Shown one piece after another: positions 53,342 through 57,949 of a stretch of 64,000 bases of DNA (within the stretch, counting starts at the first letter, position 1; each line of letters starts with the position of its first letter). The notes beneath the pieces are model-generated. The model worked only from the letters and a program-made list of their open reading frames with translations. It ran no database searches and had not been told where the DNA came from. The translations under genes were made by a program, and so were the position numbers. The DNA comes from Candidatus Helarchaeota archaeon. GTDB taxonomy: Archaea > Asgardarchaeota > Lokiarchaeia > Helarchaeales > RDOG01. The stretch is from the NCBI GenBank assembly GCA_019058315.1, contig JAHPZH010000003.1, forward strand, positions 428,451-492,450. Direction: 5' to 3'.

Positions 53342-53977
53342 TTAGGATATTGATTTGATCATATTTTCCTTTGAATTTACATTGATATTGAAATATGTAC
53401 TACTTAAGTTTGTATAATTCCATGTCCGAGGCAAGTCTGTATCTTTATACTCATTTATTTTTGCAGAAGCTACATAGATTGTCCCGTCAATCATAGGTGA
53501 ATTGACAACCTTTGTAGGTTTTCCAGACATATCTAATAATGGTTTAGTTTTTAAACTAAAGATTCCGGGAATATCAATCGAAAATTTTGCCGCTGGACCC
53601 TTTCGTAAGATTTTTTTGGTGAAATTAATTTCTGCTTTTTTTATTTTAAGCAATTCGCCGAAGCCCTTCCAAATTTTTGTAAAAATCTTTTCTAACGCAT
53701 TTGCTTGCTCATCATTAGCATTTTGATCGATATAGAGGATTCCTTTCCAGTTTCCCATGCCTTCCATGATTGTCTTTCCTTCTGGGGTAATAAAGCCGAT
53801 ACTTATTATCGTTCCGCTTATATCTACATCTCCATATTTTCCTTCATCTATATTCATTGTCATAACACCCTCGCAGCAGCCTCTAGGAAATGGAGATAAA
53901 AAGTAAGCAGGACATATTGGCGGTGATCCACAAGCTTCAACCCAATCTCCTTTAAAATACCATTCAACTTCAGACAA
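53342..53977 (-). CDS. DUF1326-family protein
   Basis: W..KG...EAC....CP, CEG, I.EG.YGDVDISG, GNW...LYID..A..EQ..ALE.IF. Confidence 0.7.
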   Translation of the reverse strand: MSEVEWYFKGDWVEACGSPPICPAYFLSPFPRGCCEGVMTMNIDEGKYGDVDISGTIISIGFITPEGKTIMEGMGNWKGILYIDQNANDEQANALEKIFTKIWKGFGELLKIKKAEINFTKKILRKGPAAKFSIDIPGIFSLKTKPLLDMSGKPTKVVNSPMIDGTIYVASAKINEYKDTDLPRTWNYTNLSSTYFNINVNSKENMIKSIS

Positions 53978-54046: not shown

Positions 54047-55057
54047 TTATTTTTTTTCCATATTTTCAATAAGATGAAAACAATATGGATTGTTGTGAAA
54101 TTTATTTGTTAAAATATAAGAAACCGAATTACAGCCCCCCTTACATTGAATTCCAAATTTACAATCTTTACAATTTGGTCCCAATTTTGATTTCTCAAAT
54201 TTTCTATTATATGCAAAATTACTCGGGTTTTCCCAGATATCTATTAAACTCTCATTTCTCACATTTCCCTCTATAAAACGATCGTTTCCCATTGATAAAC
54301 AACCCACAATCCCACCATCACTCGTTATTCCTATACTACTTATTCCTGCCCAGCAGCCATCCCATTGAGAAAGAGGTAAATTTGCAGAATAATATCCAAG
54401 ACAGTGAGCCCCTACGACCGGTAAATCATCAAATAAATTATTTTTTCTCATAGCAGCTATGAATTTTCCCGTTTCATAAAATTCTTCTTTTGATAACATC
54501 TTATCTTTTTTGAAATTCCCAAATGGCATTGCGGTTTGTATTTGCCAGTTTATTCCCTTTTTAAATATGAAATCTTTAATCAAGGGCAAGTCTCCAAAAT
54601 TAATTCTACTCACCGTTGTGATAATTGTTATCTGTATTTCGTTTTCTCTTAATAATTCAATAGCTTTTACAGATTTTTCCCAAGTTCCTTTCCCTCTTAT
54701 TAAATCATGGCTTTCTTGCATTCCATCAATACTGATCCCAATAACTTGTGGTTCAAGTCGAGTTATTTCTTCGATATATCGATCTAAAATAATACCGTTA
54801 GATACAAAATTTACGTTCATGCCAAGATCTTTGATGCATTGAGCAACAGAAAGCCAATCATTTCTTAGAAATGGCTCTCCTCCCATTAGAGCTACTTCTT
54901 CACAACCAAGTTCGGCCAATTCTTCACAGAGTTTAAAACATTCCTTTGTGTTCAATTCATCAGGTCTGGCTTTACCTGCAGATGAGCCACAGTGAGAACA
55001 ATTTAGATTACATTCTAATGTAAATTCCCATATTGCACATTCTAATTGGTAATTCAT
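54047..55057 (-). CDS. Radical SAM/SPASM peptide maturase, PlpX/splicease-like
   Basis: WEFTLECNLNCSHCGS (CX3CX2C), GGEP, SIDG, WQIQ...P.GN, GYY; SPASM C-X17-C ... CX2CX5CX3CX16C ending NNPYC.H. Confidence 0.88.
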   Translation of the reverse strand: MNYQLECAIWEFTLECNLNCSHCGSSAGKARPDELNTKECFKLCEELAELGCEEVALMGGEPFLRNDWLSVAQCIKDLGMNVNFVSNGIILDRYIEEITRLEPQVIGISIDGMQESHDLIRGKGTWEKSVKAIELLRENEIQITIITTVSRINFGDLPLIKDFIFKKGINWQIQTAMPFGNFKKDKMLSKEEFYETGKFIAAMRKNNLFDDLPVVGAHCLGYYSANLPLSQWDGCWAGISSIGITSDGGIVGCLSMGNDRFIEGNVRNESLIDIWENPSNFAYNRKFEKSKLGPNCKDCKFGIQCKGGCNSVSYILTNKFHNNPYCFHLIENMEKK

Positions 55058-55069
55058 TATTATTCCTAG

Positions 55070-55267
55070 TTATTTCCTCGAATAAACACCATAGCTTGGT
55101 GGAGCAGGTTTTGGGATGGGACGTTTCTTTTCTTTGTCTTTATTTTTGGGACCGGGATTTGATATAGGATTTGACTTAGAAGACGGTTTCGGTGGTGGAG
55201 GAGATCCTTTTTGGTGATAAGGGTATCCTCGTTTGGGATGTTTGGTTACTTTTTTTTCTTTTTCCAT
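55070..55267 (-). CDS. Putative RiPP precursor peptide 3 (65 aa)
   Basis: MEKEKKVTKHPKRGYPY...KNKDKE...APPSYGVYSRK; ends 12 nt before the rSAM start. Confidence 0.8.
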   Translation of the reverse strand: MEKEKKVTKHPKRGYPYHQKGSPPPPKPSSKSNPISNPGPKNKDKEKKRPIPKPAPPSYGVYSRK

Positions 55268-55303
55268 AATATTTTACCCATTGATACATCTAATATAATT
55301 TAA

Positions 55304-55441
55304 TTAATCTAGTTTATAAACACCATAACGTGGCGGTGATTTGGGCTCTATTTTTTCTTCATCTGACTTATCTTTTAATTTAATTGATGATGTGTTTTTA
55401 AACGGATAACCCTTTTTTTTTGTTTCTTTCTTAATACTCAT
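55304..55441 (-). CDS. Putative RiPP precursor peptide 2 (45 aa, not in ORF track)
   Basis: Manual translation MSIKKETKKKGYPFKNTSSIKLKDKSDEEKIEPKSPPRYGVYKLD; AGGAGG just upstream of the ATG. Confidence 0.8.
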   Translation of the reverse strand: MSIKKETKKKGYPFKNTSSIKLKDKSDEEKIEPKSPPRYGVYKLD

Positions 55442-55442
55442 G

Positions 55443-55583
55443 TTAATACCTCCTTTTATAAACCCCATATTTAGGAGGGGATTCTTCTTTAAGTGGACTA
55501 ATTTCCTTCTCTTTATCCTTTGATTTTAAATTTTTTGGAATTGAAAATGGATATCCTTTTCTTTTTTCTTTTTTTGAACTCAA
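55443..55583 (-). CDS. Putative RiPP precursor peptide 1 (46 aa, TTG start, not in ORF track)
   Basis: Manual translation MSSKKEKRKGYPFSIPKNLKSKDKEKEISPLKEESPPKYGVYKRRY; GAGG upstream; stop 1 nt before the next ATG. Confidence 0.8.
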   Translation of the reverse strand: MSSKKEKRKGYPFSIPKNLKSKDKEKEISPLKEESPPKYGVYKRRY

Positions 55584-55656: not shown

Positions 55657-56937
55657 CTATTCAATAATTGGTTCTCTTGGAATGTCAAAGCTTTTCTTAT
55701 TTTTAAATTCCTTTAATTCAAGTTCAATTTTCTCCTTACCTATTTTATCTTGAACTATGGTCAAAGCTTTTTCGTAATTTTGTATAATTTTATGATTTTT
55801 AAATTCCAAAATACAGCCCAGTCGTGCAATATTCCAATAGATTAGGTAATTATCAGGATTTAACTTTGAAGATGTTAAAAAATAATCTAAAGCTTGACTG
55901 AAATTTTGTTTATAAAAATTTTTTATACCAAAATTGAATAATTTGTCAGCTTGTAGTAGAATTAATTCAAAATCGAATATTTTGATATCTTTAGGCTCTA
56001 AATTTAAAATATAACTTAATCTTTCACTATAATCCTCGGGATAATTTAATATATCTAATATTAAATTCTCTAAATGGCTAATAAATTCTTTAAATTCGCT
56101 TTCTAATTCACCCAAATTTTTCTTTTTTTTCATCCATAATGAAAAAACTTTTTCATGGAATTTGATTTCAGCTAATTTCATTAGAAATTTGATTTTAGCT
56201 TCCATTTCTGTCGGTTTTAAAATACCAGCGGATAAACATTCCTCAAGAAATACTAATGGAATCTGTGGTGTGCAAATTATGGTTTGAGATATTAGTTTAT
56301 TTTGCCAGTTTTCATCATTATCAAAGATTTCAAATGCGGTTTTAAGCTGATCTTCAAGGGGAATTAATACAAAGGAATCGTTAATCTTTAGTTTATTACT
56401 TAAATTCTTCCTAAAACAGGCAAAAAGATGTTTTTTGGAAGAATTTTGAGGTTTTTCACAAATTATTCTCAATCCATATTCATATTTATGGGTTTTTTGT
56501 TCTTCTTTCCTTATATTTCCAAAACCAATTTCTTCTAAAAGCTCCTTGATTAATTTATAAGTAAAACCAGTTTTGTGTTGCATCCCTCTACTATCTATTC
56601 CATAAATCCATCTCAATGTTATTTTTTGATTATCCAGATCTTCAGCAACTAGTTTTTCAAAGGATTTCTCAAGGTCAGGAGTTTCTAATATTAATTTTCC
56701 CGATGGAATCAGAATTCTAAACCAATCACTAAGAATATATTTAGAATGGATATAATCAAAATGCTCAATTAATTGATCAGCTTCAATTAAATCAATAGTA
56801 TTGGATTCAAATGGAAGATTATCAATGTCGTAGATTTCATCTGCTACATCTTTATTATATTTGTCGATATTAATATAACCAGGTTTATATTTTGAACCAC
56901 ATCCGAGGTTAAGCTTGATTTTCATCCAATTCTTCAC
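55657..56937 (-). CDS. Class I SAM-dependent methyltransferase fused to a helical/TPR C-terminus
   Basis: LNLGCG motif I, LPF...D, IEH, RIL.P.GKL; TPR-like LFNFG...ALDYF....LNPDN...WN.A. Confidence 0.8.
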   Translation of the reverse strand: MKNWMKIKLNLGCGSKYKPGYINIDKYNKDVADEIYDIDNLPFESNTIDLIEADQLIEHFDYIHSKYILSDWFRILIPSGKLILETPDLEKSFEKLVAEDLDNQKITLRWIYGIDSRGMQHKTGFTYKLIKELLEEIGFGNIRKEEQKTHKYEYGLRIICEKPQNSSKKHLFACFRKNLSNKLKINDSFVLIPLEDQLKTAFEIFDNDENWQNKLISQTIICTPQIPLVFLEECLSAGILKPTEMEAKIKFLMKLAEIKFHEKVFSLWMKKKKNLGELESEFKEFISHLENLILDILNYPEDYSERLSYILNLEPKDIKIFDFELILLQADKLFNFGIKNFYKQNFSQALDYFLTSSKLNPDNYLIYWNIARLGCILEFKNHKIIQNYEKALTIVQDKIGKEKIELELKEFKNKKSFDIPREPIIE

Positions 56938-57949
56938 TTTTTTTAAAATTCGCTTTTAATAATTTGAATAGTCTTAAAGTGCTTGTTGCTGCTTCATCAT
57001 TAGGATCTAATTTGAGTGCTTGTTCTAGGCACTCAATGCCCTTTGATATATTTGCTAGATTACTTTTTCCATATAAATAACCCATATAATACCATGCTTT
57101 ACTGTTTTTCGGATCGATCTCAGTTACTTTTTCCAGATACTTAATAGATTTTTGATAAGCTTCTATTTTAGCATAAGCAGATGCTAACTTAAACATTGCG
57201 ATGCTATCTTCTGGGTCGATTTCGACTTCAATTTCACGACATTCTAGTACTCTATATTCTTTTCCGATAATTTCATAAATGTCCCCCAATTTAGTCCATG
57301 CTTCTTTGTAATTTGGATCTGTCTTGACTGCTTTATCAAGACATTCAATAGCTTTCTTATATTTTTTGAGATTAAGGAATGCAAGCCCCATAACAAACCA
57401 AGCTTCACTTCCCATAGGATCCAGTCGTACAATTTTTTCAAAAGATTTTATGGCTTTTCTATAACTTTCTATGGAAACATAAGAATTTCCCAAGTTTAAC
57501 CAAGCTTGTTTAAACTTTGGGAAAATTTCTACAGCTTTTTCATAGCAATTAATTGCTTTTTGTGGATCTTTTAGTTTATCATGAGAAATTCCCATGTTAA
57601 ACCAATAATTTTGATTATTTTCATCAATTTTTATAGCTTTATTAAAACAAACAATTGCTTTATTATATCTTTTTAACATGTTACAAGCCAAACCTAGATT
57701 ATACCACCCAACCTTATTATTCGGATCGATTGTGACAGCTTTTGTACAGTAATTTATTGTTTTTTCATAATCTCCATATATTTTACCAATATAGAGACCT
57801 AAATAATTCCAAGCCATACTATGATTTGGATCTATCTTAACAGCATTAATAAAACACTGAATTGCTTTTTTTAAATCGGCTTTTTGAGCTAAATATAAAC
57901 CCCTATCAAACCATTCTTTGGCTGCCATTCCCGTTATTAATTTTGACAT
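56909..57949 (-). CDS. TPR-repeat protein
   Basis: About 9 x 34-aa TPRs; overlaps the start of the methyltransferase. Confidence 0.92.
   Translation of the reverse strand: MSKLITGMAAKEWFDRGLYLAQKADLKKAIQCFINAVKIDPNHSMAWNYLGLYIGKIYGDYEKTINYCTKAVTIDPNNKVGWYNLGLACNMLKRYNKAIVCFNKAIKIDENNQNYWFNMGISHDKLKDPQKAINCYEKAVEIFPKFKQAWLNLGNSYVSIESYRKAIKSFEKIVRLDPMGSEAWFVMGLAFLNLKKYKKAIECLDKAVKTDPNYKEAWTKLGDIYEIIGKEYRVLECREIEVEIDPEDSIAMFKLASAYAKIEAYQKSIKYLEKVTEIDPKNSKAWYYMGYLYGKSNLANISKGIECLEQALKLDPNDEAATSTLRLFKLLKANFKKSEELDENQA

Follow-up and report, generated by a model that had tools for sequence, protein, structure and literature searches.

The spliceases published to date are described with an XYG motif. 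The spliceotide systems with which we compare the present locus are PlpX/PlpY/PlpA and PcpXYA (type I, Pleurocapsa) and the binary RhaX/RhaA, RasX and RcsX (Rheinheimera), represented by the family TIGR04103 / IPR026482 (PMC11414181, PMC11626197, PMC11002830). The binary spliceases have no Y protein (PMC11414181), and published spliceotides inhibit Ser/Cys proteases (PMC11626197). Here we consider a window of 64,000 nucleotides (the whole stretch of DNA that was analysed) from a Candidatus Helarchaeota archaeon, in which an initial annotation had proposed a spliceotide-type cluster, namely three small precursor peptide genes, here called P1, P2 and P3, in front of a gene for a radical S-adenosylmethionine (rSAM) enzyme with a SPASM domain. 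Judged by its gene content and motifs, this locus represents a form, specific to its lineage and with soluble substrates, of a three-part cassette for protein modification that is widespread in archaea and consists of an rSAM/SPASM enzyme, a methyltransferase partner and small substrate proteins. The enzyme probably acts on the tyrosine-bearing tail of the three peptides; for tyramine splicing as the reaction, by analogy with the spliceotides, we would give a probability of roughly 0.4.

The cassette lies head to tail on the minus strand. The methyltransferase-helical partner (426 aa, positions 55657-56937) is followed by P1 (46 aa, TTG start, 55443-55583), P2 (45 aa, ATG start, 55304-55441), P3 (65 aa, 55070-55267) and the rSAM/SPASM enzyme (336 aa, 54047-55057), with gaps of 73, 1, 36 and 12 nt, and the ORF analysis thus bore out the three co-oriented small open reading frames (ORFs) that had been noticed ending 12 nt before the enzyme gene. 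All three peptides carry the motifs initially listed for them: a basic N-terminus, (K/R)GYP(F/Y) near residue 10-16 (KGYPF in P1 and P2, RGYPY in P3), a K.KDK at the centre, and PP(K/R/S)YGVY at the C-terminus with 3-4 residues behind it, the tails reading SPPKYGVYKRRY in P1, SPPRYGVYKLD in P2 and APPSYGVYSRK in P3. They are Lys/Pro-rich (27-32% Lys+Arg, with 23% Pro in P3), have an isoelectric point of ~10 (10.0 for P1), lack any Pfam match and are not of the Nif11/NHLP type. A hydrophobic segment is absent from all of them, the maximum 19-residue Kyte-Doolittle mean being -1.04 in P1 and -1.35 in both P2 and P3, as compared to at most 0.86 in two unlinked paralogues of the same genome and 2.0-3.3 in canonical membrane substrates of the family.

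Genes this short invite the suspicion that they are unexpressed and that their motifs are a remnant of decayed membrane-protein substrates, and two of the three indeed fall below usual gene-calling cutoffs. We consider this highly improbable, and on the evidence of their conservation P1-P3 are real genes. All three are intact, both motifs are fully retained, the spacing is operon-like, and ribosome-binding sites are present: GAGGA lies 7 nt upstream of the P1 TTG start, and GGAGGT sits within the last codons of P1 in front of P2 (for P2 an upstream ATG would give 54 aa; the orthologues begin at MSIKKE). The 5.79-Mb genome holds 99,315 stop-to-stop ORFs with a length of 25 aa or more, of which 73 have the tail motif Y-[GNDSA]-V-[YF] at their end and 257 contain [GSHNT]YP[YF]; both motifs meet in five ORFs as compared to 0.19 expected, and these five are P1-P3 and two unlinked ORFs. 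Conservation of the peptides beside rSAM homologues, anticipated at the outset, was also found: rSAM orthologues (82-86% identity) are immediately preceded by trios of P1, P2 and P3 orthologues in the loci L065 and L067, and in L084, so that at least three other assemblies carry them, and independent gene callers called the trios of L065 and L067 as genes. The closest rSAM homologues, P0002 (86%) and P0003 (82%; a Promethearchaeota metagenome-assembled genome, MAG), have the same trio at their 5' side, with lengths of 43-45, 43-45 and 65 aa. Each peptide corresponds to one orthologue in every other trio, and the residue before the Tyr (K, R or S) is retained in each orthologue; the P1 orthologues in L065, L067 and L084 are 77-91% identical. 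Uncorrected ratios of nonsynonymous to synonymous differences (pN/pS) stay below 1 throughout, at 0.20-0.43 for P1, 0.16-0.64 for P2 and 0.41-0.57 for P3, with ~0.2 for the rSAM gene. A profile of the short peptides retrieved only 16 proteins from a collection of 5.8 billion, and the few with a source name come from Promethearchaeota or Helarchaeota MAGs.

The rSAM enzyme belongs to a family of ~337-aa proteins with at least 120 homologues at 50-86% identity to the window's copy, hosted by Asgard archaea (Promethearchaeota, Hel-, Hod-, Heimdall- and Hermodarchaeota), Thermoplasmatota, DPANN lineages and a few bacterial bins; the identity is 56% to the copy of Promethearchaeum syntrophicum MK-D1 and 60-77% to many Thermoplasmatota and DPANN copies. 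The arrangement of substrate, methyltransferase and rSAM genes, with 1-7 substrate genes per cassette, recurs in ~40 loci, and most archaeal family members adjoin one to six tandem genes for proteins of ~110-180 aa. These usual substrates have an N-terminal helix and two hydrophobic segments with an invariant (G/S/T)-Y-P-(Y/F)-A between them, and near their C-terminus stands x-Y-(G/N/D/S)-V-(Y/F), after which a median of 7 residues remain. The cassette of MK-D1, for instance, comprises the rSAM enzyme, the partner and three substrates with the tails LYNVY, DYDVY and KYGVY. No published description of this archaeal cassette was found in the literature searched.

The tail motif was tallied in 113 motif-selected ORFs beside homologues from Asgard, Thermoplasmatota, DPANN and other groups. 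Position +1 after the Tyr is Gly in 76 of the 113 (67%), with Asn in 17, Asp in 7 and Ser in 4; Val occupies +2 in 101 (89%) and Tyr or Phe +3 in 96 (85%). The residue before the Tyr is free (K 19, D 18, R 17, L 14, E 11, and others). Active diversification of this residue among paralogues was considered and rejected, as 96 of 105 pairs differ compared to ~87% by chance. A sister subfamily, found in same-class relatives (L075-L082, from genomes G012, G014, G019, G021, G022, G024 and G026), has an rSAM enzyme of ~370 aa at 44-47% identity, a methyltransferase partner, and single-transmembrane (TM) proteins of 82-112 aa that end in TYPxGAxY(S/G)(T/S)VxxK(D/E)F.

The window's substrates, at 45-65 aa and without a TM segment, have lost the membrane part, which is still present in the two-TM substrates beside rSAM homologues of up to 75% identity (L068, L071, L001, L041). 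In a quick maximum-likelihood tree, the only tree on which this placement is based, the short-substrate clade (the window, L067 and L065) is monophyletic with L070 as its sister, and it is nested (Shimodaira-Hasegawa-like approximate likelihood ratio test, 98) within a clade from DPANN and euryarchaeal MAGs whose substrates are of the TM type; the window's enzyme does not group with other Asgard copies. Six genomes of the same family or order were searched and none carries the rSAM enzyme. Because of this tree placement, the patchy distribution among relatives and the TM substrates of the homologues, the cassette was probably acquired horizontally and its substrates then lost their anchor. Since the anchor could be lost, and since the spacing between the two motifs differs (27-44 residues in the window's peptides, ~52 in substrates with two TM segments, 7 in the single-TM subfamily), the enzyme pair would need the two motifs and is, by this comparison, independent of TM helices and of a fixed spacing.

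The sister locus L070 (an ENA contig) has the methyltransferase gene followed directly by the rSAM gene with no substrate gene between them; the only small gene nearby, on the opposite strand, encodes a soluble, Cys-containing protein of 133 aa with EIYPKGLWASNVKLEDL and no clear tail motif. Two bacterial bins, L002 (Patescibacteria) and L037 (Chloroflexia), contain archaeal-type cassettes with partner and TM substrates, at 70% and 52% rSAM identity respectively, which represents either horizontal transfer or mis-binning.

The partner protein combines an N-terminal class I S-adenosylmethionine (SAM)-dependent methyltransferase (residues ~1-165), which bears an LGCG motif and matches Pfam Methyltransf_11/23 weakly, with an all-helical C-terminus resembling tetratricopeptide repeats (TPR; ~167-412), and its AlphaFold2 (AF2) model shows the class I fold and the helical domain at a mean predicted local distance difference test (pLDDT) score of 91.7. 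The SAM-binding residues are intact, and G12, G14, N23, D25, E58, H59 and F60 are invariant in 19 orthologues. A full-length orthologue adjoins the rSAM gene in ~40 of the archaeal-type loci and in none of the six bacterial loci; identity to the window's partner is 33% for the MK-D1 copy and reaches 62% in L041. Natural methyltransferase-rSAM fusions exist (P0147, 728 aa; P0145, 834 aa), which argues that the two enzymes act together. The partner has no sequence match in the PDB, its protein-atlas matches are unnamed archaeal clusters only, and the fold search returned generic class I methyltransferases, the RiPP (ribosomally synthesised and post-translationally modified peptide) C-terminal methyltransferase LahSb being one among many, which does not indicate the methyl acceptor.

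The rSAM enzyme matches Pfam Radical_SAM (84 bits) and SPASM (39.8 bits), with a CX3CX2C core and a full seven-Cys SPASM domain; C16, C20 and C23 as well as C219, C235, C253, C296, C299, C305, C309 and C326 are invariant in 18 homologues. The motifs first picked out by eye, WEFTLECNLNCSHCGSSAGKAR, WQIQ..P.GN, GYY, W.GC.AG and NNPYC.H, are all in the sequence, and most are likewise invariant. It is a single-copy gene in this genome. The AF2 model (pLDDT 82.4) has the standard peptide-maturase rSAM/SPASM fold without a RiPP recognition element (RRE) domain, and its nearest solved structures are PqqE, SkfB, SuiB, anSME, CteB and ChlB, with EpeE also among the neighbours; no splicease structure was found in the PDB. 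Among NCBIfam models the best is TIGR04103 (229.6 bits, E 5e-68; nif11-class maturase 3, the family of the PlpX splicease), followed by TIGR03913 (198.4 bits; a GDL-motif peptide-associated rSAM/SPASM maturase model), TIGR04133 (160), AhbD (135), MftC (TIGR03962, 130.7), NirJ (122), DynA (83) and PqqE (82.8). The enzyme thus did not group with the cofactor-synthesis SPASM enzymes, the two splicease-type models being well ahead of AhbD, NirJ, PqqE and MftC. An exhaustive search returned 531 representative proteins at E<1e-30; a protein search seeded with the homologue P0156 returned only unnamed Myxococcota-type rSAM proteins, and another homologue, P0122 (731 aa), has two tandem rSAM/SPASM units.

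We propose the following scenario. Needing neither an RRE nor a leader, the rSAM enzyme would bind each peptide at its C-terminal tail and direct a 5'-deoxyadenosyl radical at the Tyr that is invariant in (K/R/S)-Y-G-V-Y, most likely in a splicease-like excision of tyramine (-135.06 Da) that would leave beta-Lys, beta-Arg and beta-Ser ketoamides, while the methyltransferase would form a complex with the rSAM enzyme and recognise or methylate the second invariant motif, (G/S/T)-Y-P-(Y/F). In favour of splicing, the curated models nearest to the enzyme are those of spliceases, the binary spliceases set a precedent for an enzyme without an RRE (PMC11414181), K/R/S-YG sites occur in all three peptides and their orthologues, and the preceding residue is as free as the X of XYG. 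The splice tag of PlpA3 is ..GYGVVF.. (PMC10533398), and the Y-G-V that it has in common with the window's tails supports this reading. A complex prediction of the rSAM enzyme with P1 gave an ipSAE interface score of 0.57, compared to 0.22 for the best control, which the prediction tool rates as weak support: the mark set for this score is reached by 58 of 80 solved complexes and by 2 of 110 mismatched pairs, and at values of up to 0.60 by only 7 of those 80 complexes together with both passing mismatches, counts that hold only roughly for our case, where own alignments were used. The runs agree in at least 57% of the contacts, and the pLDDT of the partner chain is ~40.

A number of observations weigh against splicing. 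The scores are only about one third of the curated cutoffs (229.6 vs 725 for TIGR04103, 198.4 vs 591.75 for TIGR03913), so that by the NCBI standard the enzyme lies outside both families, and the TIGR04103 match covers model positions 3-351 of 412, the enzyme being ~75 residues shorter than the model. Scores of this level are, moreover, common to a broad rSAM cloud: 7 of 10 homologue representatives of 400-460 aa score 208-262 bits on TIGR04103/TIGR03913 (the other three did not pass the reporting threshold of 1e-60), and 170-264 bits are reached by six bacterial relatives, none of them at a cutoff, which makes a best hit to TIGR04103 generic for the neighbourhood. Bacterial loci at 33-41% identity (L042-L050) were scanned for YG-bearing small ORFs beside the rSAM gene and none was convincing. 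The original assignment to the splicease family therefore stands as far as the two best models go and fails at their cutoffs; by these scores the enzyme is splicease-like rather than demonstrably a splicease, and the match to TIGR04103 points to a broad, mostly uncharacterised neighbourhood and does not demonstrate splicing chemistry. The substrates give a similarly divided picture. KYG, RYG and SYG are indeed found in the window's peptides and their orthologues, as the proposal of XYG precursors had it, but the family-wide motif is x-Y-[G/N/D/S]-V-[Y/F] and not a strict XYG: roughly one in three family substrates has N, D, S or E in place of the Gly, and LYNVY, DYDVY and KYGVY occur side by side in MK-D1. 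We know of no counterpart in the described spliceotides to the conserved Val at +2, the aromatic residue at +3, the YP(Y/F) motif or the obligatory methyltransferase, and these features fit cross-linking chemistries equally well. Finally, the tail of the sister subfamily, TYPxGAxY(S/G)(T/S)V, has a different +2/+3 pattern.

The same cassette and substrates might accordingly be served by an rSAM enzyme that cross-links residues within the Y-G-V-Y tail, with a net change of -2 Da. The product could be a three-residue cyclophane joining the Tyr ring to the beta-carbon of Val+2 (the triceptide-type Omega1-X2-X3), or a Val-Tyr/Phe or Tyr-Tyr C-C or C-O link such as those made by MftC, PqqE or darobactin-type SPASM enzymes. 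A conserved Tyr at 0, Val at +2 (101/113) and aromatic residue at +3 (96/113) with a small or turn-forming residue at +1 is what one would expect of a Y-x-V ring or a Y-Y/F turn, and the fold is common to the cross-linking maturases PqqE, SuiB and CteB. GVY is also the C-terminal tripeptide acted on by MftC in the mycofactocin pathway; the window's tails contain it, and the MftC model matches the enzyme over its full length (130.7 bits vs a cutoff of 265; the corresponding figures for PqqE are 82.8 and 381). Yet the splicease models score ~100 bits above MftC and far above DynA (83) and PqqE (83), and the 25 best NCBIfam matches include no model of the 3-CyFE type. Decarboxylation of a C-terminal Tyr of the MftC type would be impossible as such, with 3-21 residues following the Tyr, and Val at +2 is not universal, the sister subfamily having T/S at +2 and V at +3. 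Weighing these points, we hold cross-linking to be the main rival to splicing, possible and somewhat less likely than it.

Two further chemistries were considered. The first is some other single-site modification of the tail (epimerisation, beta-hydroxylation or a C-methyl-type reaction with the methyltransferase) in place of Tyr excision or cross-linking. SPASM/twitch maturases of similar fold include epimerases, such as the structural neighbour EpeE, and a methyltransferase is the obligatory partner here; we nevertheless regard such a modification as unlikely, since the rSAM enzyme is class-B-independent with no cobalamin domain in the Pfam scan, the nearest curated models are not epimerases, and an invariant Tyr beside a variable residue points to the Tyr itself as the target. 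In the second, the peptides would be precursors sacrificed to yield a small cofactor or metabolite derived from Tyr, as PqqA is for PQQ and MftA for mycofactocin, the chain being a disposable scaffold and the methyltransferase tailoring the product. This would account for the conservation of only two short motifs in an otherwise replaceable sequence with a spacing of 27-44, ~52 or 7 residues, for an rSAM enzyme that is unusually conserved for a RiPP maturase (60-86% identity across phyla), and for several precursor copies per genome, as with some cofactor precursors. Such a role appears distinctly unlikely, however, for no peptidase, flavoenzyme or other tailoring gene is conserved across the cassette loci compared, the membrane anchoring of most precursors and the free residue before the Tyr are ill-suited to a single defined cofactor, and the patchy distribution (0/6 genomes of the same family or order) would be surprising for a core cofactor.

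Splicing on the Tyr tail remains our preferred reaction. With membrane proteins as its ancestral substrates, the locus has the look of a cassette for modifying proteins and less that of a secreted RiPP natural product. The description as a spliceotide-type RiPP cluster, with peptides outside the Nif11/NHLP classes, is supported in part, for the peptides and for the kind of rSAM/SPASM enzyme, and needs revision elsewhere: the methyltransferase and the YP[Y/F] motif are integral, and the window's cassette contains neither a peptidase nor an exporter. The idea that Lys and Arg variants might inhibit trypsin-like proteases would be plausible only if ketoamides form.

The genes flanking the cassette appear to be peripheral. 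A DUF1326 protein (211 aa, positions 53342-53977, minus strand; Pfam DUF1326) is encoded 69 nt downstream of the rSAM gene, and its gene is kept at the 3' side only in the closest relatives, L065 (where a 191-aa gene is inserted between the two) and L067. On the other side are TPR genes, of which the one for a TPR protein of 346 aa (56909-57949, minus strand; seven Pfam TPR_1 repeats) overlaps the start of the methyltransferase gene and has an 82%-identical orthologue in the same position in L084. Both are absent in L001-L055, and we rejected them as core parts of the cassette because their conservation is limited to the closest clade; membership in the window's own cassette is uncertain for either. 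No PlpY/RRE or PqqD-like gene is present in the cluster.

The locus L084, from the Helarchaeota MAG GCA_013375355.1, has the order TPR-TPR-partner-P1-P2-P3-fourth substrate-rSAM; its P2 is present and was left uncalled by the gene caller. The fourth substrate is 65% identical to one of the two unlinked ORFs of the window's genome, a soluble protein of 163 aa (C3:73443-73934, plus strand; L063:3944-4435), which is tied to the system by this orthologue inside a cassette. The 163-aa protein has an N-terminal KGYPF.IPK homologous to the N-terminus of P1 and contains a duplicated helical repeat; its tail reads IRYGVYKQD. Its gene has URO-D-like and B12-binding genes on one side and a Rag/Arf-like GTPase gene on the other, and with such neighbours a second cassette around it was rejected. 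The L084 gene of this type (L084:5690-6176) shows an apparent frameshift in a poly-A run near its 5' end, either an assembly error or a pseudogene, and was called from a downstream GTG start that cuts off the GYPFF motif. The other unlinked ORF encodes a soluble protein of 101 aa from a TTG start (C5:1134431-1134736, plus strand; L059:2988-3293), in which TGYPF stands close to the N-terminus and the tail reads PPRYGVYSKI; the ORF is ~660 nt away from a divergent rSAM/SPASM gene of 491 aa, beyond which is a DUF1847 gene.

What is new here is the soluble-substrate variant of a widespread archaeal cassette that is also found in the cultured Promethearchaeum syntrophicum. Substrates with two TM segments are awkward for expression and mass spectrometry, while the window's peptides are natural, highly soluble and chemically synthesisable substrates of 45-65 aa that keep only the two invariant motifs. 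They make the chemistry of the cassette directly testable and provide the minimal substrates with which to tell tyramine splicing, cross-linking and new chemistry apart. If splicing is true, ribosomal beta-amino-acid ketoamides would be extended to archaea and to basic side chains, and a compact RRE-free enzyme would be gained for protein engineering. More generally, it is possible, at odds somewhat short of even, that in archaea including the Asgard lineages a splicease-related rSAM enzyme and a dedicated methyltransferase rewrite an invariant Tyr in the tails of small proteins, be it as the first archaeal backbone splicing or as an undescribed radical chemistry on Tyr.

Set beside the spliceotides, the cassette has in common an rSAM/SPASM enzyme for which a splicease model scores best, an x-Tyr-Gly site with variable x in the window's peptides, and tandem substrate genes; those systems too allow a site at the C-terminus and its recognition with no leader, and the binary systems likewise lack a Y/RRE protein. 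Unlike them, it has an enzyme far below the model's cutoff (229.6 bits vs 725), a Gly that is replaceable family-wide, a conserved Val+2 and aromatic +3, a second YP(Y/F) motif and an obligatory, sometimes fused methyltransferase-helical partner. It also differs in having no Nif11/NHLP leader, peptidase or exporter, in its archaeal hosts, and in usual substrates that carry two TM segments. The absence of a Nif11/NHLP leader and of a PlpY-type partner excludes membership in the type I spliceotides only.

The triceptides (3-CyFE) and the FxsB/FXSXX-COOH systems likewise direct an rSAM/SPASM enzyme to an aromatic-x-x motif near the C-terminus, which would here be Y-G-V with a variable +1 and a conserved +2; this fit is a formal one, by sequence pattern only, and unlike the triceptides the window's cassette has a methyltransferase and a second motif. 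In the mycofactocin (MftA/MftC) and PQQ (PqqA/PqqE) pathways a SPASM enzyme likewise targets a Tyr that belongs to a short conserved motif of a small precursor. The sequence of MftA ends with G-V-Y, whereas in the window's tails 3-4 residues follow the G-V-Y and the Tyr is not C-terminal, and the cassette has none of the MftB/D/E/F or PqqB/C/D genes. A further comparison is with the archaeal membrane-protein cassette itself, as in MK-D1, which has the same rSAM family, the 426-aa partner and the two substrate motifs; the window differs in that its substrates are soluble and without TM segments, and in the two further soluble paralogues, of 163 and 101 aa, that its genome encodes away from the cassette.

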